Positions 349 to 14,698 of a stretch of 43,336 nucleotides of DNA are shown one piece after another. The stretch comes from a virus (lineage: Duplodnaviria > Heunggongvirae > Uroviricota > Caudoviricetes), in IMG/VR virus record IMGVR_UViG_2554235189_000011, positions 1-43,336 of that record; one strand, written 5' to 3'. The position numbers were made by a program, and so were the translations under genes. Numbering within the stretch: the stretch's first letter is position 1; every line of letters begins with the position of its first letter. Below the pieces are notes generated by a model. The model was not told the origin of the DNA, searched no databases, and saw only the letters and a program-made list of their open reading frames with translations.

Positions 349-398
349 GTCGCCAGAAAATGAAATTAGGCAGCAAACCACTGTATGAGAGGTGAGAT

Positions 399-722
399 AT
401 GGAAGCATTAGTAGTAGAGCGAAGCGAGGATGGCTACTGGACGCACCCAGAATACGCCAACCTGTTTGGGGATAGAGAGGCAATTTCAGCTGATGAGTTC
501 AGATCTTTCTGCAAGCAGCATGGCATTGAATCATCAATTGTTGAAATGGAAAACGACAACAATCAAACGGTAATTGACGCGTATTTTGAAGATGGGAATC
601 CAAACATCAGTGGATGGGAGCCAAGCATGCCAGATGGAAAAGGATGGTTTGTCGGTTCGATTCACGATACAGAAGACGGTCCGATCTGCGTTTGGTTCAG
701 GAATGTAGATAAGGCCGCATAG
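399..722 (+). CDS. hypothetical protein (early-left operon, position of lambda N-ral region)
   Basis: 107-aa ORF preceded by GAGGTGAGAT RBS; no recognised motif. Confidence 0.55.
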   Translation: MEALVVERSEDGYWTHPEYANLFGDREAISADEFRSFCKQHGIESSIVEMENDNNQTVIDAYFEDGNPNISGWEPSMPDGKGWFVGSIHDTEDGPICVWFRNVDKAA

Positions 723-785
723 TCGGCCTTTATTTTTGGCATAAACAAGAGAATAAACACTGCACTGAATTATTTGAGGTGAGAT

Positions 786-1256
786 ATGACAAAATCATGG
801 AGCGTACCTTTTCCTGAATCAGAAACTGAACATGATGGAATGCCTGTTTTCTGGAGATTCCAAGCGACAGTTGAAGAAGATGGAATCAAAATATTCGCAC
901 TTCAATATATAGCTTTTCATCAGACAGAGCATTATGCATGGTTGGTTCCTTCGCATTGGATTGTTAATTTTAAACCAGCACCAAATCAGTGGTTACAGGA
1001 ATGGAAACAAAGGAGAAATAGATATGCAATTAAGAAAGTAGCAAAAAATGCAGAAAGATCTTTTGCATTCCCGACGAAGAAACTTGCCATTGAAAGTTTA
1101 TTGCGCCGGAAGAAATACCATTTGATGAGAATCAAACAAGATTTGGCTGTTGTATCAACTCTTGTTGATGGGATGAAGAATATTGATACATCAACACCAG
1201 ATATTGAATATAACTTTGGACACAACCAAGAAACAGAAAATTGGGTGTTTTATTAG
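786..1256 (+). CDS. hypothetical protein
   Basis: 156-aa ORF with the same GAGGTGAGATATG initiation region as the upstream gene. Confidence 0.55.
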   Translation: MTKSWSVPFPESETEHDGMPVFWRFQATVEEDGIKIFALQYIAFHQTEHYAWLVPSHWIVNFKPAPNQWLQEWKQRRNRYAIKKVAKNAERSFAFPTKKLAIESLLRRKKYHLMRIKQDLAVVSTLVDGMKNIDTSTPDIEYNFGHNQETENWVFY

Positions 1257-1360
1257 TACGAATAAGCACTGTGTATTCATTCCAACGAGTGAATACACGG
1301 AGCAATGTCGCTCGTAACTAAACAGGAGCCGACTTGTTCTGATTATTGGAAATCTTCTTT

Positions 1361-1388
1361 GCCCTCCAATGTGAGGGCGTTTTTTTAT
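1361..1388 (+). terminator. rho-independent terminator candidate
   Basis: GCCCTCCAATGTGAGGGC hairpin followed by TTTTTTTAT. Confidence 0.6.
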
Positions 1389-1406
1389 CTATGAGGATAT
1401 GAATAG

Positions 1407-1775
1407 ATGTCAAACATCAAAAAATACATCATTGATTACGACTGGAAAGCATCAATAGAAATTGAAATCGACCATGACGTAATGACAGAGGAAAAACTTC
1501 ACCAGATTAATAATTTCTGGTCAGACTCTGAATACCGACTCAATAAACACGGCGCTGTATTAAATGCTGTATTAATCATGCTGGCGCAACATGCTCTGCT
1601 TATAGCAATTTCGAAAGACTTAAATGCATATGGTGTTGTTTGTGAGTTCGACTGGGATGATGGAAATGGTCAGAAAGGATGGCCTCCAATGGATGGTAGT
1701 GAAGGAATAAGAATTGCCGATATCGATACATCAGGAATATTTGATTCAGATGATATGACTATCAAGGCCGCCTGA
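1407..1775 (+). CDS. ea10: lambda Ea10-like protein
   Basis: 122 aa, MSNIKKYIIDYDWKASIEIEIDHDV...; size and position upstream of cIII match lambda ea10. Confidence 0.75.
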   Translation: MSNIKKYIIDYDWKASIEIEIDHDVMTEEKLHQINNFWSDSEYRLNKHGAVLNAVLIMLAQHALLIAISKDLNAYGVVCEFDWDDGNGQKGWPPMDGSEGIRIADIDTSGIFDSDDMTIKAA

Positions 1776-1847
1776 GTGCGGTTTTACCGCATACCAATAA
1801 CGCTTCACTCGAGGCGTTTTTCGTTATGTATAAATAAGGAGCACACC

Positions 1848-2012
1848 ATGCAATATGCCATTGCAGGGTGGCCTGTTGCTGGCTGCCCTTCCGAATCTTT
1901 ACTTGAACGAATCACCCGTAAATTACGTGACGGATGGAAACGACTTATCGACATACTTAATCAGCCAGGAGTCCCCAAAAATGGATCAAATACTTATGGC
2001 TATCCAGACTAA
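1848..2012 (+). CDS. cIII: CIII (FtsH protease inhibitor)
   Basis: 54 aa MQYAIAGWPVAGCPSESLLERITRKL...; AAGGAG RBS upstream of ATG at 1848; the ORF-track entry 1776-2012 is an upstream extension. Confidence 0.85.
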   Translation: MQYAIAGWPVAGCPSESLLERITRKLRDGWKRLIDILNQPGVPKNGSNTYGYPD

Positions 2013-2124
2013 ATTCACTATCGCCACTTTTATTGGCGATGAAAAGATGTTTCGTGAGGCCGTCGACGCTTATAAAAAATGGATATTAATACTGAAACTG
2101 AGATCAGGCAAAAGCATTCACTAA
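1981..2124 (+). CDS. kil: Kil (host-killing / FtsZ-inhibiting peptide)
   Basis: 47 aa [47 protein letters not shown]; overlaps cIII by 32 nt as in lambda. Confidence 0.8.
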
Positions 2125-2199
2125 TCCCCTTTCCTGTTTTCCTAATCAGCCTGGCATTTCGCGGGCGATATTTTCACAGCCATTTTCAGGAGTTCAGCC

Positions 2200-2496
2200 A
2201 TGAACGCTTATTACATTCAGGATCGTCTTGAGGCTCAGAGTTGGGCGCGTCACTACCAGCAGATCGCCCGTGAAGAGAAAGAGGCAGAACTGGCAGACGA
2301 CATGGAAAAAGGCCTGCCCCAGCACCTGTTTGAATCGCTATGCATCGATCATTTGCAACGCCACGGGGCCAGCAAAAAAGCCATTACCCGTGCGTTTGAT
2401 GACGATGTTGAGTTTCAGGAGCGCATGGCAGAACACATCCGGTACATGGTTGAAACCATTGCTCACCACCAGGTTGATATTGATTCAGAGGTATAA
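2200..2496 (+). CDS. gam: Gam (RecBCD inhibitor), short-form ORF only
   Basis: 98 aa [21 protein letters not shown]...; the long-form start MDINTETEI at 2079 is in another frame and terminates near 2231. Confidence 0.85.
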
Positions 2497-2501
2497 AACG
2501 G

Positions 2502-3287
2502 ATGACTACAGCACTCGCAACGCTGGCTGGGAAGCTGGCTGAACGTGTCGGCATGGATTCTGTCGACCCACAGGAACTGATCACCACTCTTCGCCAGACG
2601 GCATTTAAAGGTGATGCCAGCGATGCGCAGTTCATCGCATTGTTGATCGTCGCCAACCAGTACGGCCTTAATCCGTGGACGAAAGAAATTTACGCCTTCC
2701 CTGATAAGCAGAACGGCATCGTTCCGGTGGTGGGCGTTGATGGCTGGTCCCGCATCATCAATGAAAACCAGCAGTTTGATGGCATGGACTTTGAGCAGGA
2801 CAATGAATCATGTACATGCAGGATTTACCGCAAGGACCGTAATCATCCGATCTGCGTTACCGAATGGATGGATGAATGCCGCCGCGAACCATTCAAAACC
2901 CGCGAAGGCAGAGAAATCACCGGACCGTGGCAGTCGCATCCCAAACGGATGTTACGGCATAAATCCATGATTCAGTGTGCCCGTCTCGCCTTCGGATTTG
3001 CTGGTATCTATGACAAGGATGAAGCCGAGCGCATTGTCGAAAATACTGCATACACTGCAGAACGTCAGCTGGAACGCGACATCACTCCGGTTAACGATGA
3101 AACCATGCAGGAGATTAACACTCTGCTAATCGCCCTGGATAAAACATGGGATGACGACTTATTGCCGCTCTGTTCCCAGATATTTCGCCGCGACATTCGC
3201 GCATCGTCAGAACTGACACAGGCCGAAGCAGTGAAAGCTCTTGGATTCCTGAAACAGAAAGCCACTGAGCAGAAGGTGGCAGCATGA
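2502..3287 (+). CDS. bet: Bet (Red-beta single-strand annealing protein)
   Basis: 261 aa, near-identical over its length to recalled lambda Bet. Confidence 0.92.
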
Positions 3288-3964
3288 CACCGGACATTAT
3301 CCTGCAGCGTACCGGGATCGACGTGAGAGCTGTCGAACAGGGGGATGATGCATGGCACAAATTACGGCTCGGCGTCATCACCGCTTCAGAAGTTCACAAC
3401 GTGATAGCAAAGCCCCGCTCAGGAAAGAAGTGGCCTGACATGAAAATGTCCTACTTCCACACCCTGCTGGCTGAGGTTTGCACCGGTGTGGCTCCGGAAG
3501 TTAATGCTAAGGCGCTGGCCTGGGGAAAACAGTACGAGAACGACGCCAGAACCCTGTTTGAATTCACTTCCGGCGTGAATGTTACTGAATCCCCGATCAT
3601 CTATCGCGACGAAAGTATGCGCACCGCCTGCTCTCCCGATGGTTTATGCAGTGACGGCAACGGCCTTGAGCTGAAATGCCCGTTTACCTCCCGGGATTTC
3701 ATGAAGTTCAGGCTCGGTGGTTTCGAGGCCATAAAGTCGGCTTACATGGCCCAGGTGCAGTACAGCATGTGGGTGACGCGAAAAGATGCCTGGTACTTTG
3801 CCAACTATGACCCGCGTATGAAGCGTGAAGGCCTGCATTATGTCGTGGTTGAGCGGGATGAAAAGTACATGGCGAGTTTTGACGAGATGGTGCCGGAGTT
3901 CATCGAAAAAATGGACGAGGCACTGGCTGAAATTGGTTTTGTATTTGGGGAGCAATGGCGATGA
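3284..3964 (+). CDS. exo: Exo (Red-alpha 5'-3' exonuclease)
   Basis: 226 aa [40 protein letters not shown]...; start overlaps bet stop. Confidence 0.92.
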
Positions 3965-4143
3965 AGCATCCTCACGATAATATCCGGGTAGGCACGATCA
4001 CTTTCGTCTACTCCGTTACAAAGCGAGGCTGGGTATTTCCCGGCCTTTCTGTTATCAGAAATCCACTGAAAGCACAGCGGCTGGCTGAGGAGATAAATAA
4101 TAAACGGGGGGCTGTATGCACAAAGCATCTCCTGTTGAGTTAA
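3955..4143 (+). CDS. lambda orf60a-like small protein
   Basis: 62-aa [16 protein letters not shown]... immediately after exo. Confidence 0.6.
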
Positions 4144-4307
4144 GAACGAGTATCGAGATGGCACATAGCCTCGCTCAAATTGGAGTCAGGTTTGTGCCAA
4201 TACCAGCAGAAACAGACGAAGAATTTCATACGTTAGCCACATCCCTTTCACAAAAGCTGGAAATGATGGTGACGAAAGCAGAAGCAGATGAGAGAGACCA
4301 GGTATGA
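4116..4307 (+). CDS. lambda orf63-like small protein
   Basis: 63-aa ORF in conserved position. Confidence 0.55.
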   Translation: MHKASPVELRTSIEMAHSLAQIGVRFVPIPAETDEEFHTLATSLSQKLEMMVTKAEADERDQV

Positions 4308-4383
4308 CAACCACTGAATGCATTCTTCTGGCAGCGGGCTTCATATTCTGTGTGCTTATGCTTGCCGACATGGGACTTGTTCA

Positions 4384-4599
4384 ATGACACCTCAGCAGGA
4401 AAACGCCCTTCGCAGCATTGCCCGTCAGGCTAATTCTGAAATCAAAAAAGCCAGACAGAAGTTTCCGGATAAAAACGTCGATGACATTTGCCGTAGCGTA
4501 CTGAAGAAGCACCGCGAAACGGTAACGCTGATGGGATTCACACCGACTCACTTAAGTCTGGCAATCGGTATGTTAAACGGCGTCTTTAAGGAACGGTGA
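4384..4599 (+). CDS. lambda orf61-like small protein
   Basis: Internal start MTPQQENALRSIARQ... of ORF 4318-4599; overlaps preceding small ORF as ATGA. Confidence 0.5.
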   Translation: MTPQQENALRSIARQANSEIKKARQKFPDKNVDDICRSVLKKHRETVTLMGFTPTHLSLAIGMLNGVFKER

Positions 4600-4697
4600 A
4601 CATGAAAAGCAAAATCATCAGGGAGCTACAGGCTCCTTTTTTATTATTCGCATTCACCCTCAAGCGTATTAACCAACAATTCAGGGATTAATGAAAG

Positions 4698-4919
4698 ATG
4701 GCAGATATCATTGATTCAGCATCAGAAATTGAAGAATTACAGCGCAATACAGCAATAAAAATGCGTCGCCTGAACTACCAGACTGTATCCGCAACTCATT
4801 GTTGTGAGTGTGGCGATCCGATAGATGAACGAAGACGCCTGGCAGTTCAGGGTTGTCGGACTTGTGCAAGTTGCCAGGAGGATCTGGAACTTATCAGTAA
4901 ACAGAGAGGTTCGAAGTGA
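4698..4919 (+). CDS. TraR/DksA-family zinc-finger protein (lambda orf73-like)
   Basis: 73 aa with CxxC...CxxC (CCECGDPIDERRRLAVQGCRTCASC). Confidence 0.75.
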   Translation: MADIIDSASEIEELQRNTAIKMRRLNYQTVSATHCCECGDPIDERRRLAVQGCRTCASCQEDLELISKQRGSK

Positions 4920-5383
4920 GCGAAATTAACTCTCAGGCACTGCGTGAAGCGGCAGAGCAGGCAATGCATGACGACTGGGGATTTGACGCAGACCTTTTCC
5001 ATGAATTGGTAACACCATCGATTGTGCTGGCACTGCTGGATGAACAGGAAAGAAACCAGCAATACATCAAACGCCGCGACCAGGAGAACGAGGATATTGC
5101 GCTAACGGTAGGGAAGCTGCGCGTTGAGCTTGAGGAGACAAAATCAAAACTCAACGAGCAGCGCGAGTATTACGAGGGAGTTATCTCTGATGGGTGCAAG
5201 CGTATTGCTGAACTGGAAGCGCGGGAAGTTCAATTACCGACTCGCTACGACCTTCGATATGGACACCCGATAAATGCAGATGAGCGACAAGTCATGATAC
5301 CTAAAGAAAATGGCAGTTGGCTTTACCTGATTGACCTAGAACACGCATTACGCGTCGCTGACATTCGCATCAAAGGAGAGTGA
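4916..5383 (+). CDS. hypothetical coiled-coil protein
   Basis: 155-aa ORF, charged and helical-looking; translationally coupled. Confidence 0.55.
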   Translation: MSEINSQALREAAEQAMHDDWGFDADLFHELVTPSIVLALLDEQERNQQYIKRRDQENEDIALTVGKLRVELEETKSKLNEQREYYEGVISDGCKRIAELEAREVQLPTRYDLRYGHPINADERQVMIPKENGSWLYLIDLEHALRVADIRIKGE

Positions 5384-5384
5384 T

Positions 5385-5900
5385 ATGGCGTTAACACACC
5401 ACGAACTCTGTCAGATTGCGTACAAGTTCCTTAAGCGCAACGGGTTCAAGGTTTGCTTTCATGACCGCTTTGTTGCTGTAACCAGTACCGGAGAACAGCC
5501 AGATGCTATGGGATTCAGAAATTCAGCATCATGCCTGATAGAGGCGAAGTGTTCTCGTGCTGACTTGTTGGCAGATAGAAAAAAGCGTTTCCGTAAAAAT
5601 CCCTCACTTGGCATGGGCGACTGGCGATTCTTTATTAGTGAGCCGGAAATTATTTCAGTTGAGGATTTACCTCCCGGCTGGGGATTACTTCACGTTGTTA
5701 ACGGAAGAGTACGGAAAGTACATGGATGGCCCAGGGGTAATTGCTGTTGGGGTAATCCTGACGATAAGCCATTTACCGGGAATAAGCAGGTTGAATGCGA
5801 TTACATGTTATCTGCATTAAGGCGCATGGAGTTGAGAGGGCACCTTAATGAAATATATGACGGTGTGATTGTTAATAAGAAAGAAGGAAACGCGGCATGA
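5385..5900 (+). CDS. hypothetical protein, possible PD-(D/E)xK nuclease fold
   Basis: 171 aa; PD...EAK arrangement (PDAMGFRNSASCLIEAK) is suggestive only. Confidence 0.5.
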   Translation: MALTHHELCQIAYKFLKRNGFKVCFHDRFVAVTSTGEQPDAMGFRNSASCLIEAKCSRADLLADRKKRFRKNPSLGMGDWRFFISEPEIISVEDLPPGWGLLHVVNGRVRKVHGWPRGNCCWGNPDDKPFTGNKQVECDYMLSALRRMELRGHLNEIYDGVIVNKKEGNAA

Positions 5901-6400
5901 TCACTATTACCAAAGGGCGACTGCTGACAATCAAGCAGTGGCGCGAAACATACGGACCGGGTAGCAACGTTGTACTGCCAGCAGAAGAAGCGGAAGAACT
6001 GGCAAGAATTGCGCTGGCATCACTGGAAGCAAAACCAATAGCGTGGGAATGCGGCGAAAACATAATCCTGTTTAATCCTGACACAGTTGAAGCATACGCA
6101 AAACGTGCGGAGGTATCACCTAAACCACTATATGCCGCGCCGCCAGTTCCGGTAACTCCGGATGGTTGGATAAGCTGTAGTGAGCAAATGCCAGAAATGG
6201 GAGAGCGACAATGCTATGTGTTAGCGGCTGACTTTAAAAACAACTACCCGCCAAACATCCCCAACACTCAGGTCGGCGTATATGGCGACTGGTTTAATGA
6301 TGGCAATCCCACTTGGGATGACGGTGATGGCGAAGACCTGTATCTCAAAGAGGTAACCCACTGGATGCCGCTACCGGAACCGCCGCAGGAGGTGAAGTGA
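5897..6400 (+). CDS. DUF551-like prophage protein
   Basis: C-terminal ...EVTHWMPLPEPP signature typical of DUF551. Confidence 0.7.
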   Translation: MITITKGRLLTIKQWRETYGPGSNVVLPAEEAEELARIALASLEAKPIAWECGENIILFNPDTVEAYAKRAEVSPKPLYAAPPVPVTPDGWISCSEQMPEMGERQCYVLAADFKNNYPPNIPNTQVGVYGDWFNDGNPTWDDGDGEDLYLKEVTHWMPLPEPPQEVK

Positions 6401-6483
6401 TGAATTGGCCTGAAGCATTCACCGCTGTAGGAGTTGCAATAGCGGTGGCATTTATTCTGTATTCGCTTTTCCGCTGGGGATAA
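6400..6483 (+). CDS. small hydrophobic peptide (27 aa)
   Basis: MNWPEAFTAVGVAIAVAFILYSLFRWG; strong CAGGAGGTGAAGTG RBS; start overlaps upstream stop. Confidence 0.4.
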   Translation: MNWPEAFTAVGVAIAVAFILYSLFRWG

Positions 6484-6487
6484 AGGA

Positions 6488-6730
6488 ATGTTCGCTCTGA
6501 TTCAACGTGGTCAGATATACACCGATAGCGCCGGCTATCCGATAAAAATTCTTCGCTGCATAAACAACACTGTGTTGTACAGAAGAATGGATGGGCGAAC
6601 ACAGTCGGTAAAAATAAACGATTTTAATGAACTGTTTGAACGGATTGATCACCAGGAATACCGACAAATTCTGGCAGAAACAGAGCAGGAAGCTCATCTG
6701 AAAAAATTACGAGCCATGAAAAGGAAGTAA
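6488..6730 (+). CDS. hypothetical protein
   Basis: 80-aa ORF in operon context. Confidence 0.5.
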   Translation: MFALIQRGQIYTDSAGYPIKILRCINNTVLYRRMDGRTQSVKINDFNELFERIDHQEYRQILAETEQEAHLKKLRAMKRK

Positions 6731-6888
6731 AGAATGAATAAAGCATTTGAACGATTGGTCCACCAACGTTACGGCAATCACTATGACCTGACGCGAGATG
6801 GTGACGGTTTCTACTGTCGTGAAGTTGTGAAGCGAATGTTTGACGTGTGGTGCCACTGCCGTGGGCTGAGTGTTGTGTGAGGTGATGT

Positions 6889-7098
6889 ATGGGGCTGGAT
6901 TGCGTGCCTATATCAACCTACTGCCGCGACGCGGGAGAAACGGTTGATGCCGTTAACAAACGGATACAAAGAGGAATATGGAAAGAAGGGGTTCATGTAT
7001 TAAAAGTCGATGGAGTTAAAGAACGCTGGGTCGACTTAATAGAGGTTTCAAAATGGGCAAGAAAGAACAAGGATTATTATCTCTGCCAAGAGGAGTAA
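6889..7098 (+). CDS. xis: excisionase-like DNA-binding protein
   Basis: 69 aa immediately upstream of and overlapping int; ...RIQRGIWKEGVHVLKVDG... Xis-like motif. Confidence 0.65.
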   Translation: MGLDCVPISTYCRDAGETVDAVNKRIQRGIWKEGVHVLKVDGVKERWVDLIEVSKWARKNKDYYLCQEE

Positions 7099-8231
7099 CT
7101 ATTCGTAAGCATAAAACTGCTTCAACACTAGTTATCACTTTCACATATAAAGGGGTTCTTTGCAGGGAGCCCCTGTCTCGGCTTGAGGCAAATACACGTG
7201 GTATTAAATATGCTGAGCGCCTGCTAGGGGAGATACAAAATCAGATCGCCAGCGGAACGTTTGAATATGCGAAATATTTCCCCAGTTCCAAAAAACTGGA
7301 GTTATTCGGTATAGTAAAGAAAACCAAAAATATTAAGTCCTATCTTGATGAATACCTGAAAATTTGCATGAACCGCAATCTGTCGCCGTCAACCATTGGC
7401 GGTTACGAAAAATGTATATCAGCACTATCAGAGCTACATAAACTACATGTAACAGAATTGACGCCTGCGGTACTAAAAAATTGGATAGCCAGCCGAAAAA
7501 CTAAGCTGAAAACAATCAGGAATAACCTGTCATTTCTGCGCAGCGCCATTGATGAGGCTGTAACTGATGGCCTGTTGACTATTAACCCGGTAACTCTTGT
7601 CAGCGCCAGCCGGTATCACGTGGTCGACAGTAAACCGAACGCCGACGATTACGAAGTTGATCCGTTTGCGCCTGCGGAAACCAGTGCCATATATCAGCAC
7701 TGCAAGTATCAGGAATGGCAGAATCTGTTCCGCTTCGCCTTCAATACAGGGCTACGCAGCTCTGAGCTATGCGCATTACGTTGGACCGATATCGACTTTA
7801 TAGGTAATACAGCGCACATACAGGCGGCCAGTGTCGTAGGGGTACTTAAAGGCACCAAGACAAAAGCCGGTACCCGTAAGGTGGAGCTGAACAGTGAGGC
7901 TCTGGCGGCCCTGCAGGCGCAGAAGCAATACACCTTTATGAAAAGTGAGTTCATATTCAGCGATCCGAAAACGGGAGATCCCTGGACGAACGCCGACGCT
8001 ATCCGTAAAAAAGCATGGGTGCCGACCCTAAAAAAAGCTGGTGTGCGCTACCGTAACCCGTACCAGACGCGCCACACATTCGCCACCAGACACATTAGCC
8101 AGGGTGTAAACCTTTTCTGGCTTGCCGGGCAGATGGGGCATAAGGGGCCGGAAATGCTGTTCCGCAATTACGGTAAATACCTGGCTGAATACGACGGGAA
8201 AACCGCAATGGAAGCTGGAATGAAGAATTGA
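7053..8231 (+). CDS. int: tyrosine integrase
   Basis: 392 aa; C-terminal catalytic region with R...HxxR...Y (RHTFATRHISQG...GHKGPEMLFRNYGKY). Confidence 0.9.
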   Translation: MGKKEQGLLSLPRGVTIRKHKTASTLVITFTYKGVLCREPLSRLEANTRGIKYAERLLGEIQNQIASGTFEYAKYFPSSKKLELFGIVKKTKNIKSYLDEYLKICMNRNLSPSTIGGYEKCISALSELHKLHVTELTPAVLKNWIASRKTKLKTIRNNLSFLRSAIDEAVTDGLLTINPVTLVSASRYHVVDSKPNADDYEVDPFAPAETSAIYQHCKYQEWQNLFRFAFNTGLRSSELCALRWTDIDFIGNTAHIQAASVVGVLKGTKTKAGTRKVELNSEALAALQAQKQYTFMKSEFIFSDPKTGDPWTNADAIRKKAWVPTLKKAGVRYRNPYQTRHTFATRHISQGVNLFWLAGQMGHKGPEMLFRNYGKYLAEYDGKTAMEAGMKN

Positions 8232-8244
8232 TTTGAAGAAAAAA

Positions 8245-8267
8245 CCCGGCAAATGCCGGGTCTTTTT
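8245..8267. terminator. bidirectional rho-independent terminator between convergent int and 8273-9040
   Basis: CCCGGCAAATGCCGGG hairpin flanked by A-tract and T-tract. Confidence 0.7.
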
Positions 8268-8272
8268 GATGG

Positions 8273-9040
8273 TTATTCTGTCGCGCCACCTATCGAAACA
8301 TAATCATGAAATTGATCGTCAATGAGTCGGTCCTTACAGATAACATGTACAATGTGACGACAACAGTTTTCATCATCATACGCACGACCCCAGCGAACAA
8401 TCTCATCTACAGACAGATCATTCGCACTCCATGGCAAAGTACCTGAAACACCACGCGCACCTGGACCAAGTATGTCCATAAATTTCTTCGTGCGTGAATT
8501 GTAGATCCGTACCTCGGCAATTCGAATGATGCTACTAGCCCAAAGAGCACCACCGGCAATACTTTGAATGTTATCGCAGATGAGAAACTCATGCTTTCGC
8601 GCAAGCATTTTATAGATCTCACGCGCCAAACCTGCTGATTGGAAATCCTGTGCGATAACAGCGCTTTTCACTTGCTTTCCGGTCATCATCTGACCGTTCT
8701 CTTCGATAAAATTAAAGTCGTTGAACTGTATACGACCTATTCTTATCGTTTTGTTATCGTCTACCATATCAAGACCCAAGAGGGTATTGACCAGATCCTG
8801 CATTGGAACCTTCGAATCAAGAAGGTCACTGCCATAGTCTAAAAAAAAGTCGTCGGTGGAACATCCCAGTTGATACACATCCAAGTAGTACTGAAACTCA
8901 CCAGAACTGACAATGTACTCATCAGCCCTCAGTAAGCCAGCCTCGGCAGTGAAAAAATAGAATGACTCAATAAGACGTTTTTCGCCAAATGGCGTGATGT
9001 TCAAGTCCTTGTTATATGAAGGTATTAACGCAGGAGCCAT
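8273..9040 (-). CDS. hypothetical protein (distal gene of int-att cargo operon)
   Basis: 255-aa ORF; no confident motif; lower GC than phage core. Confidence 0.6.
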   Translation of the reverse strand: MAPALIPSYNKDLNITPFGEKRLIESFYFFTAEAGLLRADEYIVSSGEFQYYLDVYQLGCSTDDFFLDYGSDLLDSKVPMQDLVNTLLGLDMVDDNKTIRIGRIQFNDFNFIEENGQMMTGKQVKSAVIAQDFQSAGLAREIYKMLARKHEFLICDNIQSIAGGALWASSIIRIAEVRIYNSRTKKFMDILGPGARGVSGTLPWSANDLSVDEIVRWGRAYDDENCCRHIVHVICKDRLIDDQFHDYVSIGGATE

Positions 9041-9051
9041 TCAGCAACCTT

Positions 9052-9393
9052 TTAATGGTAGTTAATTTCCCTGTAGTTCTTCTGCATGTATAGAGCAATT
9101 GCCGCTTCAATTTTCTTCAGCAGATTACTGCTTACATACTGAGGATACTGATCTGCTGGCTTCACAACATAGCGCAATTTTTCTTTGTTCATGGCGATCT
9201 CAGCGAACGGGATCACGTCACCGTCACGAACCTCATTGTTCAATGTCACAATAAACAGCTGACGTGCCGGGGAGACACGATCACTCAGTCTTCTCACGAA
9301 GAACTCGTTTGCTGTGTTTGAGTCAACAAAAGAACTGACGAGTTGAGTCCGACGCTCAATCGTCTGTATCGATCTTCTCGCTACTGTTCTCAT
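9052..9393 (-). CDS. hypothetical protein (proximal gene of int-att cargo operon)
   Basis: 113-aa ORF 11 nt upstream of 8273-9040, same strand. Confidence 0.6.
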   Translation of the reverse strand: MRTVARRSIQTIERRTQLVSSFVDSNTANEFFVRRLSDRVSPARQLFIVTLNNEVRDGDVIPFAEIAMNKEKLRYVVKPADQYPQYVSSNLLKKIEAAIALYMQKNYREINYH

Positions 9394-9721
9394 GCTAGTC
9401 TCCTCAACACTTCACTAGCTGTGCAGTGAAGGTACAAAAAGCCACTGATGATAACAGCGTCATCAGTGGCCCTTGATGGTGATAACCGCAGTTATCTAAA
9501 TAGTATGATATTACCTTACGGGTAATTCTTCAACGATTGCTCTGAATTGAATAGTCTTGAAGTGCTATGAACAGCACAAAACAGCGCTAATCACCGCCCC
9601 AGTGGCGCCTAAACACTTCAAAATGTTGGACAGAATCAGGACGTTAGAAGCACTACAATATGCACGTAAAATGCACGTGAGGTATTTTAAATTAGAAAAA
9701 TCATTAATATTCAATTGGTTA

Positions 9722-9763
9722 AGAATTTTTCGGATACGGGTTCAACTCCCGCCAGCTCCACCA
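9722..9763 (+). other. att core: partial copy of the ssrA (tmRNA) 3' end
   Basis: AGAATTTTTCGGATACGGGTTCAACTCCCGCCAGCTCCACCA matches the recalled E. coli ssrA 3' end with a few mismatches; no tmRNA body upstream. Confidence 0.75.
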
Positions 9764-9893
9764 ATCATGATTGGACGGTGTAAGGACAACACCAACAAAA
9801 ACAGGAAGTTAGCAGTCTCAGCAGGACACCGACCAGACGGTGAGGAGACAAAAAAGGATACGCAAAGGAGCCGCGGCTCTCAAGTGTGAAAGA

Positions 9894-9928
9894 AGCCCGC
9901 AAATTGCGGGCTTTTTTATTGATCAGTC
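9894..9928 (+). terminator. rho-independent terminator
   Basis: AAGCCCGCAAATTGCGGGCTT hairpin followed by TTTTTTATT. Confidence 0.7.
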
Positions 9929-9972
9929 AACAATAAACAGTAACCGAATGAGAATTTAATAAGGATATTCAT

Positions 9973-11004
9973 ATGGAAGCTACTGTGGATTCGATTGATT
10001 TTCTGATCCGTAGTGAAGATGATTTTCTAAACTTTCTGGAAGAAATGAAAGCCCGAGAGGGGCTTGATTCTAAAGAGTTTATTTTCCCTAACGTAAAGTT
10101 TGCAGGCTGGCCATCCTTAGACATAAATGTTAAAGGAGAGCGGTATCATTCATCAATTACATCAGCAATGTTGTTTGGTATGTCAATGCTCAACGAGGAG
10201 ATACAGCGGGCGTTTGCAACCATACGATACGGATCGCAGAATCTTCAACGCTTGACTAATGAAGACAAGCAACGACTTGATATAAATTTTAAAATTAGCG
10301 AAGGTTCTAGTGATGCGGAAGGCACCACTGACAAGATCATCAACGCAGTAACTGATTTTTTGCGAGATACTATGTCTGGACTGAACGGCTGGCAGAAAAT
10401 GCTTGTTATAATCACAATGGTTGGCGCGGCCAGCACATGTGGTTATCACTACATTTCAGAAAATGCCGTAACAGAAAGACATGCAACTGATCGGCAGGTT
10501 GAAATTGCGAAAACCACATCCGATGGCATAAACAAAGCCATAGAAGCAACATTAGATTATAAAATCTATGGGAAATCAGCGATTAGCGATAAAGTTACTA
10601 GTCACGGACAAGCAGGTAAAAGTGCTTTAGTGAAGCAATTAGCTGCTGATCCTACTGTCGAAACCGTGACTTTAGGAAATGAGAAACTAACACGACAAGA
10701 CCTAAATACCTACAACAGCCGACAATCTGTAGATAGAGAACGTAAAGAACGAACTGATATATTTTCCATCAAAGGTGTAACCAGAACAGGGCCAACAAAT
10801 CAGGATATTAATATTAACGTTGTTAGGGTCTCTAATGACGAATGCTTCACAATCAAAGCTTCAGCTGATGTTATCACCCAAGATGAGTTGACAGCTATTG
10901 TTGACGCTTTGTCAAACAACTCTCATATTAAAATCAGTTACTTAGAGGTAATTGAAAAGGGTGCTGTTTCTATAGGTCAGTTCAACACTATTGTTTCAGA
11001 ATAA
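9973..11004 (+). CDS. hypothetical protein with central hydrophobic segment (low-GC cargo)
   Basis: 343-aa ORF; AAGGA RBS; hydrophobic stretch WQKMLVIITMVGAASTCGYHYI. Confidence 0.6.
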   Translation: MEATVDSIDFLIRSEDDFLNFLEEMKAREGLDSKEFIFPNVKFAGWPSLDINVKGERYHSSITSAMLFGMSMLNEEIQRAFATIRYGSQNLQRLTNEDKQRLDINFKISEGSSDAEGTTDKIINAVTDFLRDTMSGLNGWQKMLVIITMVGAASTCGYHYISENAVTERHATDRQVEIAKTTSDGINKAIEATLDYKIYGKSAISDKVTSHGQAGKSALVKQLAADPTVETVTLGNEKLTRQDLNTYNSRQSVDRERKERTDIFSIKGVTRTGPTNQDININVVRVSNDECFTIKASADVITQDELTAIVDALSNNSHIKISYLEVIEKGAVSIGQFNTIVSE

Positions 11005-11055: not shown

Positions 11056-11400
11056 ATGTCCTTAAAGTATGCACATGAAAAATTTCATACTGCAGTACTT
11101 ACTCTTGCGGGCCATGGAAGTATTCAAGAACGCTTGATTAATTCGTATGTTTTTAGCCTTGGGCATCTTAAAACAGCCGATGATATTCCAAATGCCTTAC
11201 AAAGCAGGTTCGATGAATTATGTAAGGAACTGACTAAGTTTGATGCCACTGGCGATGAGGGGCGAGTTCAAGCAACAGTATCAAAACTTAACGATTTCGA
11301 GATCAATAAACTGATCGAAGATATTGTCAGTCTTAACGATGATATTTGCATGAAATTGGCTCTGACGGATGAGACTTACCAAGACATACACCAAAGTTAA
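11056..11400 (+). CDS. hypothetical protein (low-GC cargo)
   Basis: 114-aa ORF downstream of 9973-11004. Confidence 0.55.
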   Translation: MSLKYAHEKFHTAVLTLAGHGSIQERLINSYVFSLGHLKTADDIPNALQSRFDELCKELTKFDATGDEGRVQATVSKLNDFEINKLIEDIVSLNDDICMKLALTDETYQDIHQS

Positions 11401-11484: not shown

Positions 11485-11697
11485 CTATTTATGATGTAAT
11501 CCGGACATCAGTTCATGGACAAGATTATCTCTTTCATTGTGTTGCAACCGTAAATGCATAGCAAAAAGGTGAGCACTATCCTCATTCCTCTTCAAGCCAT
11601 GCTGTTCAAGATACCCGAAAAAACGGCTTCTCTTATCCGCTATTTCCTGAGTCTGACGTGCAACATTTACCAAATTTTCTAGCGTTTTTCTTGGCAT
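11485..11697 (-). CDS. hypothetical small protein
   Basis: 70-aa ORF with strong AGGAGG RBS. Confidence 0.55.
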   Translation of the reverse strand: MPRKTLENLVNVARQTQEIADKRSRFFGYLEQHGLKRNEDSAHLFAMHLRLQHNERDNLVHELMSGLHHK

Positions 11698-11895: not shown

Positions 11896-12450
11896 TTATT
11901 TATCTCCTGCCGGAAACCTCTGATACAAAGTCGATACGCCAACATCATAGATAATCGCAACTTTCTGGCGCGGAACTCCTGATGCAATTAATCGTCCGGC
12001 TTGTGCCCATTGTTCTGGTGTAAGTTTGGGACGACGTCCACCAATTCGTTCCTGTGCGCGAGCAGCTTCCAGTCCAGCTTTTGTTCGTTCAACAATCAGT
12101 TCTCGTTCCATTTCAGCCAGGGCCCCCATCACATGAAAGAAAAAGCGCCCCATTGGGGTACTGGTATCAATTGAATCCGTCAGACTACGAAAGTTGATGC
12201 CTCGTTCGCGCAACTCCTCCACCAGCACGACAAGATGCCGCATACTGCGCCCCAGCCGGTCCAGTTTCCAGACCACCAGCGTGTCACCTGCCGATAATGT
12301 CCTGAGCAGTTTTTTCAGTCCCGGCCTTTCGGACTTTGTACCGCTTATCTTGTCTTCAAAAATCAGCTCGCATCCTGCACAGTTCAGCGCATTACGTTGT
12401 AGATCTGTGTTCTGGTCATTTGTTGATACGCGTACATAGCCAATAAGCAT
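11896..12450 (-). CDS. pin: serine recombinase, DNA invertase (Pin/Gin/Hin/Cin family)
   Basis: Internal start MLIGYVRVSTNDQNTDLQRNAL...; 184 aa; close to recalled e14 PinE. Confidence 0.9.
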   Translation of the reverse strand: MLIGYVRVSTNDQNTDLQRNALNCAGCELIFEDKISGTKSERPGLKKLLRTLSAGDTLVVWKLDRLGRSMRHLVVLVEELRERGINFRSLTDSIDTSTPMGRFFFHVMGALAEMERELIVERTKAGLEAARAQERIGGRRPKLTPEQWAQAGRLIASGVPRQKVAIIYDVGVSTLYQRFPAGDK

Positions 12451-12504: not shown

Positions 12505-12530
12505 TTTCCATAAACGTTGGTTTGGGAGAA
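12505..12530. repeat. invertase crossover site (pix/gix-like), pin-proximal
   Basis: TTTCCATAAACGTTGGTTTGGGAGAA; 15 nt of its reverse complement are identical to the site at 14396-14421. Confidence 0.7.
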
Positions 12531-12998
12531 GGCTCTGCATTACCTGTTGGTGTGCCTGTTCCATGGCCTTCAGCCACACCGCCAACAGGCTGGCTGAAAT
12601 GCAACGGTGCGGCATTTTCTGCTGAAGAATACCCGGAACTGGCAAAGGCTTATCCAACAAATAAATTACCTGATTTACGCGGTGAGTTTATTCGTGGCTG
12701 GGATGACGGGCGCGGTATTGATGCAGGACGTGTTTTATTGAGTATTCAGGCCGGAATGCTGGAAAAGCACCGTCATCCTGTTGTCGCCAACGATGGGTAT
12801 GACTCAAAAGAGGAATGGGAACTGGCGACAATCTTCAGAAGAGCATATACGCAAGGCAGGGGGCTTGATGCTGCCGCTGCCGGAGGGAGTCTGATCCCAT
12901 CACCGACACTTCATTCACGAGGGAGTATCGGTAATACTGGCGGGAGTGAAACCCGTCCACGAAATATTGCATTTAACTATATCGTGAGGGCTGCATAA
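12531..12998 (+). CDS. alternative tail-fiber C-terminal variable segment, currently silent
   Basis: Start-less ORF beginning at the crossover site (...GLGE GSALPVGVPVPWPSATPPTGWLKCNGAAF...). Confidence 0.7.
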   Translation, partial: GSALPVGVPVPWPSATPPTGWLKCNGAAFSAEEYPELAKAYPTNKLPDLRGEFIRGWDDGRGIDAGRVLLSIQAGMLEKHRHPVVANDGYDSKEEWELATIFRRAYTQGRGLDAAAAGGSLIPSPTLHSRGSIGNTGGSETRPRNIAFNYIVRAA

Positions 12999-13708
12999 TG
13001 GATAACGCCGTATTAAATAGCGAGCTTATTACCACGAAGGCGGGGAATATTACCGTCTATAACTATGATGGTGAGACGCGGGAATATATTTCTGCATCAA
13101 CTGAATATCTTGCAGTGGGTGTCGGTATTCCAGCATATTCCTGTTTAGACGCTCCTGGTACATCTAAGGCTGGTTATACAATTTGCCGTTCTGTGGATTT
13201 AAAATCATGGGAATATGTGTCAGACCATCGCGGTGAAATCGTCTATAACACCGAAACGGGAGATGCCAAAGAAATCACAGCACTAGGCGACTATCCCGAA
13301 AATACAACCACTATCGCCCCGTTAACGCCATACGATAAATGGGATGGTGAAAAATGGGTGACAGATACTGAGGCACAACACGGTGCCGCAGTAGAAGCGG
13401 CAGAAGCACAGCGCCAGTCACTGATTGATGCAGCAATGGCTTCCATCAGTCTGATTCAACTGAAATTGCAGGCCGGACGTAAACTGACGCAGGCAGAAAC
13501 AACCAGACTTAACGCTGTGCTGGATTACATTGACGCGGTGACGGCAACAGATACCAGCACCGCGCCGGATGTCATCTGGCCTGAACTGCCGGAGGCGCAG
13601 GCCATTCAATATCTGGCGCACTGGAGGAATCAACCAGTTCCAGTGCGTCCAGATAATCCAGCCACAAATTATATTGCGCCAGTTCATCATCTTTCAGACG
13701 ACCAATAG
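12998..13708 (+). CDS. tail fiber assembly protein (alternative)
   Basis: 236 aa; conserved Tfa C-terminal motif ...LDYIDAVTATDTSTAPDVIWPELP. Confidence 0.75.
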   Translation: MDNAVLNSELITTKAGNITVYNYDGETREYISASTEYLAVGVGIPAYSCLDAPGTSKAGYTICRSVDLKSWEYVSDHRGEIVYNTETGDAKEITALGDYPENTTTIAPLTPYDKWDGEKWVTDTEAQHGAAVEAAEAQRQSLIDAAMASISLIQLKLQAGRKLTQAETTRLNAVLDYIDAVTATDTSTAPDVIWPELPEAQAIQYLAHWRNQPVPVRPDNPATNYIAPVHHLSDDQ

Positions 13709-14024
13709 CGGCTTTACCGGGCCATTGCTTACTGTTCATGTATTCGTTGGCTTGGTTAATTAGTAGCTGTCTTTCTGATTCAGTAATTTCAATAAGTTCT
13801 TCATGCGTGGGTGGAGGAATCTCTGCCCACGCAGGCAGCCCATCATCTCCGGCAATACGGATTTTTCCTTGTGGCGGTTCAGCCATAAACTCACTGATAA
13901 TATTTTGATTTACTTCCTTAGCGTCTGATAAATCCCATCCCTCTGATTTATATTTATCAATCATATCCACAGGGAAAAAAGCATTATGCCTTGCGCTATA
14001 AACATATTCGTTCATATAAATCAC
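13572..14024 (-). CDS. tail fiber assembly protein (expressed orientation)
   Basis: 150 aa; ...LDYLDALELVDSSSAPDIEWPAPP motif; convergent with the alternative tfa. Confidence 0.75.
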   Translation of the reverse strand: MIYMNEYVYSARHNAFFPVDMIDKYKSEGWDLSDAKEVNQNIISEFMAEPPQGKIRIAGDDGLPAWAEIPPPTHEELIEITESERQLLINQANEYMNSKQWPGKAAIGRLKDDELAQYNLWLDYLDALELVDSSSAPDIEWPAPPAVQAR

Positions 14025-14035
14025 CCTGAATAAAA

Positions 14036-14698
14036 TTACTCACCAACAGCCCACCAACTGTAATTCATCGATACCGTGTCGCTGGTTGATGACGTTCTGT
14101 AAGCAGAATTAAAGCCGGTTAACGTTGGGCCTTCTGCAGTCATCACGGACCCTCGCCCAGCGCCTAAAGGCGCACCGCCATCACCAGAATGAGTAAGCAT
14201 GGCGCAGTCCGCTTTTTTGGGGAAAGGGATGCTAAATGTAATTCTCATTGTTTGCGTCGATAATGTCGGCGTAACCGCACCACGACCATATTGCAGGATT
14301 TTCCCGTTGGGTAATTTCATCCATCCATCACCACTGGCAAAAGAGGCCATGTCCGGTATCTGATTTTCCCCTGTCCCTACATCCCGTTTTGCCGCTTCTC
14401 CCAAACCAAGGTTTTCGAGAGCCGTTTTCACCGTGCCATCCGATTTGATATCGCCAAACGGATTCTTGCGGCTTAACAGCAGCGCGCGAAGCGCGGTAAG
14501 TAGCTGGTCGTGCCGCCCCTTCTCCAGGCTGGCACCGGACGCCTCCACAACGCTGCAAAGCTCCTCCTGCAACATGTCAAAGTAGTCATCATCCAGATCG
14601 GTGGCAGGCGTGCCGGTCTGGGGGTTACCACGGGTAAAACCGTTCTTACCCGCGCCGAACTTATCCTTCTGCGCGGTTTTCGTGTCTATACGATGCAT
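14036..14698 (-). CDS. tail fiber protein (short constant N-terminus plus variable C-terminus)
   Basis: 220 aa; contains the crossover site at ENLGLGE. Confidence 0.75.
14396..14421. repeat. invertase crossover site (pix/gix-like), inside tail fiber gene
   Basis: TTCTCCCAAACCAAGGTTTTCGAGAG; close to the recalled gix consensus. Confidence 0.7.

Follow-up and report, generated by a model that had tools for sequence, protein, structure and literature searches.

The stretch of DNA analyzed here, hereafter "the window", comprises the 43,336 nucleotides of the IMG/VR record IMGVR_UViG_2554235189_000011, a virus of the Caudoviricetes. At positions 9722-9763 it holds a short segment, AGAATTTTTCGGATACGGGTTCAACTCCCGCCAGCTCCACCA, that resembles the 3′ end of ssrA, the gene for transfer-messenger RNA (tmRNA). 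Lambda-type early genes ending in xis and int lie on one side of this segment, and a late gene module ending in tail fibers and the DNA invertase gene pin lies on the other. Both flanks run into insertion sequences (IS), the end of an IS1203-like element at 1-348 and a complete IS3 at 39362-40619. This layout had been described in a first-pass annotation of the window and was upheld in each of its parts; the matter considered below is what kind of attachment (att) site the ssrA-like segment represents.

When the full-length E. coli ssrA gene (363 nt, taken from JNE132847) was compared with the whole window by BLAST, nucleotides 328-363 of the gene aligned with 9728-9763 (34 of 36 identical, E = 2e-10). 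The likeness to ssrA is real, although the 42 nt initially given for it are slightly generous, as 9722-9727 shows a loose likeness only, with two extra T included. An exact block of 27 nt pairs 9737-9763 with ssrA nucleotides 337-363, and the two mismatches are found directly 5′ of this block, at 9735-9736, where the window has TA and ssrA has CG. The remaining four ssrA matches in the window are 11-15 nt each (E = 2.9), and no part of the gene beyond nucleotides 328-363 has a significant match anywhere in the window. The 26-mer GGGTTCAACTCCCGCCAGCTCCACCA is present there as a single copy, even if three mismatches are allowed, and was never found in 100 shuffles.

A functional full-length tmRNA gene is not detected at 9722-9763, either by ARAGORN, which found neither tmRNA nor tRNA in the window, or by Rfam, which yielded no tmRNA match (RF00023) at gathering score. 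In a relaxed Rfam search, the tmRNA model reached 18.6 bits (cut-off 47) over 9672-9763, through its 3′ end only. The statement that no tmRNA body lies upstream of the segment is correct. An open reading frame of 110 aa (9557-9889) that spans the fragment was regarded as spurious because it has no family match and crosses the att boundary.

On the left of the segment, xis (6889-7098, + strand; phrog_2917, E = 2.5e-41) overlaps the start of int (7053-8231, + strand), which encodes a tyrosine integrase with the Pfam domains Arm-DNA-bind_2, Phage_int_SAM_5 and Phage_integrase. The int gene reads towards the att site and lies 1.5 kb from the ssrA-like segment. Between the two we find a cargo slot with two genes (8273-9393, − strand) and the P arm of the att site (9394-9736, + strand). 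Degenerate likeness to ssrA is seen in this arm at 9722-9736, and upstream of 9728 the arm departs from the ssrA sequence. The region containing int, cargo and P arm (6802-9764) shows 99.2% DNA identity to the Escherichia phages PhiR12_1 to PhiR12_5 (PV340549-54), whose records give K-12 MG1655 or E. coli C as hosts and begin or end at this att site; a literature search on the PhiR12 phages returned unrelated papers only. In comparison with attR-side sequences, 9690-9736 has one mismatch to PhiR12_5 and none to E110019. Further to the left, the genes of the pL region follow those of a prophage annotated in O55:H7 CB9615 colinearly at 97%, and this match begins at 349 and stops exactly at 9763. 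The gene order cIII-kil-gam-bet-exo, followed further on by xis-int, together with a cIII thermoregulator, identifies the left element (prophage 1) as lambdoid.

The sequence on the right of the segment has a different affiliation. From 9764 onward, the window is identical to the sequence that directly follows an intact ssrA gene in NWU_3, and 9764-9923 (about 160 bp) is 91% identical to the region annotated as attP and "tmRNA pseudogene" in the free phage LLS (PQ299149). Because of the latter match, the DNA that abuts 9763 is a phage P′ arm (9764-9925, + strand) and not host DNA. A strong terminator, made of a hairpin plus a T-run (9889-9917, + strand), lies at the end of this arm. The element beyond (prophage 2) is 97% identical to vB_EcoM-689R6 (89% coverage) and to Shigella phages SfII, SfI, SfIV and SfV. 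It directly follows an intact, annotated ssrA gene in at least 15 complete E. coli genomes, NWU_3, EC1515 and XH990 among them, and in genomes with intact ssrA the match to the window starts at 9728.

An alignment of eight att sites brings both flanks together. The 27-nt core is invariant in all eight sites. In the left arm, the window equals E110019 and the attR of PhiR12_5; in the right arm, it equals PS1Thumoskin9 and the attL2 of NWU_3 and is close to the attP of LLS. The true P′ arm of phage 1 (CTTT..GGACT..., then dinI) is located after the intact ssrA of JNE132847 and closes the PhiR12_1 record, where it also follows an intact ssrA 3′ end. This arm is homologous between PhiR12_1 and the attL1 of JNE132847 and differs from the window from 9764 onward. 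Since the right arm of the window is not the true phage-1 P′ arm, the site has the structure P(phage 1)-core-P′(phage 2).

Such a structure bears on the possibility that the site is the attP of one phage, whether through circular excision, concatemer formation or duplication of the same prophage in tandem, with the int side and the pin side belonging to one genome. The succession of int, cargo, core, cargo and tail fibers indeed resembles a circularized temperate phage. However, PhiR12_1 shares int and P arm with the window and has another P′ arm followed by dinI, and the end of prophage 1 opposite int in JNE132847 is occupied by lambda-type J and tail-fiber genes. In addition, an antiterminator, RusA and lysis genes belong to the right element itself in the window, as do an integrase and an attR in NWU_3. 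In the attP of a single phage, both core flanks would come from the same phage genome; here, the left half, with its lambda pL genes, has its matches among lambdoid phages and the right half among SfV/SfII-like myoviruses, two groups that are unrelated. This reading has next to no chance of being right, and the single-phage attP, the concatemer and the excised circle were excluded on account of the differing arm of PhiR12_1 and of the integrase and ssrA fragment that the right element carries in NWU_3. Among the options that the first-pass annotation had gathered under an attP-type junction, tandem prophages in the same orientation have stood, while the concatemer and the circular form have not; the site is attP-like only in the sense of a chimera between the P arm of one phage and the P′ arm of another.

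The whole array could be read from JNE132847, which has 99.9% identity across the junction; of 5,426 complete E. coli genomes, no other covers most of it. In this genome, smpB is followed by intact ssrA (3111556-3111918, + strand), dinI and nleG7, lambda-type tail, head and terminase genes, Q, replication genes, cII, cro, cI, int, two cargo genes, the ssrA fragment and prophage 2. The fragment lies on the + strand about 53 kb downstream of ssrA, and both prophages have the same polarity, with the P′ end by ssrA and int at the far end. The intact gene is separated from the junction by one whole lambdoid prophage, in agreement with the earlier proposal that the junction lies inside a polylysogenic array. 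As in islands of the Islander type, prophage 1 contains a tyrosine integrase gene within the element. An intact ssrA and a 3′ fragment in the same orientation are seen at its opposite ends in JNE132847; the window itself begins inside an IS. No intact ssrA is found within the element.

NWU_3 provides the continuation of prophage 2. In this genome the prophage runs on through repressor, replication genes, its own integrase gene, an ATPase gene and a methylase gene to a second ssrA fragment (9964-9989 of the NWU_3 locus, L002), after which a further integrase gene is found. We take the sequence that follows the second fragment to match the K-12 sequence after ssrA, and the further integrase is presumably of the P4 type. 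The CP4-57 island of K-12 is an ssrA-integrated element as well, and its P4-type integrase gene presumably lies beside the intact ssrA and not at the far end. An integrase and a fragment for each member of a tandem array are present in NWU_3 and not in the window, where prophage 2 has neither int nor attR. Because prophage 2 is truncated by IS3 and has lost these parts, the window is best described as a decayed tandem array. Each of the two prophages is also found alone at ssrA, prophage 1 in the PhiR12 records and prophage 2 in NWU_3.

Altogether, these observations make it highly probable that the short ssrA tail at 9722-9763 is an att scar, in which the attR of prophage 1 is fused to the attL of prophage 2, the two prophages being arranged in tandem at ssrA. 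Certain observations weigh against this conclusion. The intact ssrA and the distal attR of prophage 2 lie outside the window, and the complete array is seen in relatives only. The closest relative, JNE132847, differs from the window on the left, where 349-4420 is absent and an IS3 is found at another position. The left junction between IS and prophage (348|349) was detected in none of the 5,426 complete E. coli genomes and in none of the GTDB representatives. Finally, the position of strand exchange, the arm-type sites and the upstream context in the window's own genome are inferred.

A simpler proposal is that the site is the attR of one lambdoid prophage, that the DNA from 9764 to about 11800 belongs to the host or to an old island, and that the myovirus merely happens to be nearby. 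Three genes between 9973 and 11697 have neither a phage hallmark nor a family assignment, as such a proposal would lead one to expect, and E110019, which carries prophage 1, retains only the 160 bp of the phage-2 P′ arm (9764-9923) and then passes straight into ypjA. In NWU_3, however, the interval from ssrA to the next fragment holds the sequence from 9764 onward, joined without interruption to the myovirus with its integrase, and 9764-9920 has 91% identity to the annotated attP arm of a free phage, LLS. Quite different sequences follow the core in CB9615 and PhiR12_5 and the second fragment in NWU_3, so the sequence from 9764 onward is not conserved chromosome. Moreover, the Enterobacter homologues of the 343-aa gene found in this interval are also terminal prophage genes. 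On balance, we consider a simple attR very improbable.

If the segment is the scar of two tandem integrations, as we propose, its formation can be explained as follows. The window int and the prophage-2 integrase of NWU_3 share 68% protein identity; both phages would use these related tyrosine integrases to recombine within the 3′-terminal 27 nt of ssrA. The attP of each phage would carry a copy of the ssrA 3′ end, and integration would rebuild ssrA with the phage P′ arm, terminator included, at the prophage end far from int. The old ssrA 3′ end, with whatever followed it, would be displaced to the int-proximal end. Entry of a second phage at the same core would leave a middle junction made of the P arm of phage 1, the core and the P′ arm of phage 2. 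Regeneration of the target with displacement of a 3′ fragment is reportedly the theme of "Traffic at the tmRNA gene", by Williams in 2003.

The common core (9737-9763, + strand) corresponds to four of the five bases of the T-stem 5′ strand, the T-loop, the T-stem 3′ strand, the acceptor 3′ strand and CCA. Five independent P arms were compared, and in four of them (the window, CB9615, PS1Thumoskin9 and the attR2 of NWU_3) identity to ssrA starts exactly at the T-stem CGGG. This pattern is consistent with strand exchange in the T-arm, most probably in the 7-nt T-loop between the inverted halves of the T-stem. This placement draws on the known behavior of tyrosine integrases that target tRNA and tmRNA genes (tDNA): a T-loop class of integration sublocation, with strand exchange within the 7-nt T-loop, is said to have been defined by Williams in 2002.

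The first-pass annotation had concluded from the absence of a tmRNA body that the segment is a phage-borne core. Taken alone, the argument is invalid because the displaced 3′ fragment of any ssrA-integrated element lacks a body too. Within the segment, phage-1 DNA can be demonstrated for 9722-9736 alone. The 27-nt core, which is identical in all partners, cannot be assigned to a source.

The order of the two integrations admits two explanations. Prophage 2 may have integrated first, with the lambdoid phage later entering the regenerated ssrA, or the lambdoid phage may have come first and phage 2 may have entered its attR. As either route gives the same final junction, the order is not readable from the sequence. 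We lean towards prophage 2 as the first arrival, with reasonable though limited confidence: it is seen alone beside intact ssrA in the 15 or more genomes mentioned above, it is the more decayed partner, and the junction between IS3 and ypjA (40619|40620) is identical in PS1Thumoskin9, where a different lambdoid prophage (88.7% DNA identity in the int region, DUF4760 cargo) lies upstream of the same fragment. A point on the other side is that the presence of a different phage in PS1Thumoskin9 could also be explained by lambdoid mosaicism.

Both members of the array look defective in the window. Prophage 2 is colinear with NWU_3 up to 39361, and in the window it is devoid of repressor, replication genes, int and attR, which an IS3-associated deletion removed at 39361/39362. 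Without int and attR, prophage 2 is unable to excise. For prophage 1, attL1 and the junction, both of which retain phage-1 arms, would suffice for excision. Prophage 1 is probably defective as well, as it is cut at 348/349 by the IS1203-like element, the insertion that probably disabled it.

The P arm of prophage 1 carries a tandem motif, the 20-mer ATGCACGTAAAATGCACGTG at 9660-9679. The same 20-mer recurs in the P′ arm of the PhiR12_1 attL, a variant is found in the attL1 of JNE132847, and it is absent from the right flank of the window. We propose the ATGCACGT repeats at 9660-9679 as candidate arm-type Int sites. The arm-site motif AYRCACGTR shows no enrichment across the window (3 matches versus 2.5 expected); the sole hints of a role as putative arm sites are that it stands in tandem in the P arm and returns in the P′ arms of relatives.

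The resulting picture resembles the attP, attL and attR of phage lambda in having an arm-binding integrase, an xis gene that overlaps int, an int gene reading towards the att site and candidate arm-type sites repeated in P and P′ (the ATGCACGT pairs, presumptive in our case). It differs from lambda in its target, which is not an intergenic site but the 3′ end of an RNA gene and has to be restored by the phage, and in the variable cargo slot that separates int from the P arm.

In this slot, a 113-aa gene (9052-9393, − strand) is located upstream of a 255-aa gene (8273-9040, − strand) whose product has a GNAT-like fold. Three further att-proximal genes lie on the prophage-2 side and encode products of 343 aa (9973-11004, + strand), 114 aa (11056-11400, + strand) and 70 aa (11485-11697, − strand), all without family. 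Searches of the cargo genes in Pfam, PADLOC and NCBIfam returned nothing, and the PHROG families retrieved are of unassigned function. The 113-aa gene, too, has no assigned function. Sequence searches in PDB with the 113-aa protein and with a profile of the 255-aa family gave no significant match. An acetyl-CoA-binding motif was not confirmed in the GNAT-like protein, in which the relevant loop is modeled with low confidence. The GNAT-like protein and its upstream partner could form a toxin-antitoxin-like or defense module, placed in the variable slot that separates int from attP.

The family of the 343-aa protein consists of hypothetical proteins and, wherever the source names the organism, is from Enterobacterales. 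Its homologue (P0039) in the three Enterobacter loci examined (L010-L012) is the first gene at the tail-fiber end of a prophage, near dinI. The AlphaFold2 model of the 343-aa protein is weak (pLDDT 64) and its confident part is a C-terminal, beta-rich domain of about 90 aa, which may tentatively be described as OB-like. As a separate observation, prophage 2 of NWU_3 (L002, 10069-14006) has an AAA-family ATPase gene and a DNA adenine methylase gene between integrase and P arm; this is the same int-to-att position as that of the prophage-1 cargo, and it is deleted in the window. The ATPase and the methylase are possibly a defense module.

A very unlikely speculation is that the chimeric junction might work as a hybrid att site on which both integrases (68% identical) act crosswise. 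The two prophages could then excise jointly, or Int could exchange the att-proximal cargo slots of a lambdoid siphovirus with those of an SfV-like myovirus. One of these slots holds the uncharacterized GNAT-fold protein and its small upstream partner, which could be a new toxin-antitoxin or defense pair.

The P′ arm of phage 2, which follows intact ssrA in other strains, presumably terminates transcription of that gene. In lysogens, ssrA would then be transcribed into a phage-supplied trailer of about 160 nt. A common layout of about 160 nt ending in a terminator is shared by the P′ arms of prophage 2 and LLS and, more distantly, by those of prophage 1 and PhiR12 (compared over 9764-9925 of the window, 5920-6090 of locus L003 and 3028-3190 of locus L008). 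Rfam matches at 9777-9930 (PrrB_RsmZ, the Trp and Thr leaders, STnc320 and isrK) are weak and all below threshold. Of these, the Thr_leader and STnc320 alignments, the only two displayed, cover the terminator hairpin alone, and the hairpin fits the terminator part of the Thr_leader model.

The remaining features of the window can be summarized from left to right. The terminal 348 bp of an IS3-family (IS1203/IS629-like) element (1-348, − strand) cut prophage 1 upstream of the pL operon. Annotated IS3-family elements of JNE132847 and E110019 have ends with 95-96% identity to it, and the features beneath the matches are annotated as IS3 or IS1203 family transposase. The pL early genes (349-6888, + strand) comprise DUF2528, cIII, kil, gam, bet, exo, a traR/dksA-like gene, an ea22-like gene, DUF551 and DUF4222. 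Among them, gam (2200-2496), bet (2502-3287) and exo (3284-3964), all on the + strand, were assigned through the colinear, annotated CB9615 prophage, and the cIII thermoregulator (1835-1893, + strand) matches Rfam Lambda_thermo with 88.5 bits.

In the right element, pin (11896-12450, − strand) encodes a Gin/Pin-type serine DNA invertase with the Pfam domains Resolvase (E = 8e-51) and HTH_7, and is called pinE in relatives. Next to it lies an invertible tail-fiber segment of 1903 bp (12512-14414), bounded by 20-nt inverted repeats (12512-12531 and 14395-14414) that are 95% complementary. In comparison with JNE132847 and NWU_3, the segment has the opposite orientation at 99.7-99.9% identity. The invertase, the inverted repeats and the occurrence of both orientations are the marks of a Gin/Pin-type tail-fiber switch of SfV/e14-like myovirus prophages, in which such a segment carries alternative tail-fiber C-termini and assembly genes, and inversion relative to two near-identical relatives indicates that the Pin switch has been active recently in this lineage. 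The rest of prophage 2 (14415-39361, − strand), whose annotation was taken from JNE132847, contains baseplate, tape measure, sheath and tube, head, portal, terminase and lysis genes, an antiterminator, DUF968, KilA-N, RusA and a truncated methylase. The myovirus late genes are complete, and after them come the lysis genes and a portion of the early region.

The complete IS3 (1258 bp; 39362-40619, + strand) truncates prophage 2 inside the methylase gene. IS3 and its flank are 99.9% identical to a region of PS1Thumoskin9, and the match to E110019 resumes at 40620. The same junction between IS3 and ypjA is present in the window, in JNE132847 and in PS1Thumoskin9 (L006, 14657-15906), while the other side of the IS3 meets prophage 2 at the methylase in one case and at ymfQ in another; the prophage-2 remnant of PS1Thumoskin9 is shorter than that of the window. 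The differing prophage-2 sides suggest repeated IS3-adjacent deletions eating into the prophage. In JNE132847, an IS30 is additionally inserted into this IS3. An Rfam match to isrC, an Hfq-binding small RNA (150 bits, 39430-39552), lies wholly inside IS3, over the 5′ end of transposase orfA; it marks the IS3 copy here and not a separate small RNA gene. Beyond IS3, 40620-43336 (− strand) contains a remnant of the autotransporter gene ypjA, a pinH-like recombinase fragment and ypjCB, as annotated in JNE132847, E110019 and PS1Thumoskin9. This part of the chromosome is flanked by the ssrA island hotspot and ileY, and in E110019 a tRNA-Ile gene follows the ypjA/ypjCB region.

Comparison with known systems indicates that the arrangement has precedents. 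Free phages provide the closest sequences: PhiR12_1 to PhiR12_5 have the same integrase, cargo and P arm at 99.2% identity, and LLS has an identical 27-nt core and a 91%-identical P′ arm with its terminator. In free phages, however, P and P′ come from one genome, whereas here they come from two. Tandem prophages that share attB have been described for Shiga toxin-producing and enteropathogenic E. coli (Nakamura et al. 2021, PMC8112680). The arrays in that study are similar to ours in that two prophages use the same att at one locus and decay through IS, and in that the upstream lambdoid prophage carries type III secretion effector cargo (nleG7 in JNE132847). The main subject of that study, however, is the integration of prophages within prophages at ompW, ydfJ and mlrA; in our case, a lambdoid prophage and an SfV-like myovirus stand side by side at ssrA, which is the classical type. 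A regenerated target gene with a displaced fragment, tandem arrays included, is the basis of the Islander database, in which the tmRNA gene is the most enriched target (Hudson/Williams 2015, PMC4383910). The Islander principle of an intact target at one end and an int-proximal 3′ fragment of the same orientation, one for each member, would apply here as well, except that prophage 2 of the window has lost its own integrase and fragment through the IS3-associated deletion. Furthermore, ssrA is a documented site of lambdoid Stx (Shiga toxin) phages, as in O111 (PMC2323221).

The arrangement is already known and ordinary in pathogenic E. coli, and the window offers a clean example of it; the pairing of these two prophages is rare (one of 5,426 genomes) but conceptually not new, and nothing in it challenges current understanding. 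In practical terms, an ssrA tail without a body shows exactly where one prophage ends and the next begins, and prophage callers should split the sequence at 9763/9764 instead of merging both sides or calling an attP. In biological terms, the window illustrates how elements accumulate at the ssrA hotspot of pathogenic E. coli and are subsequently worn down by IS-associated deletions.
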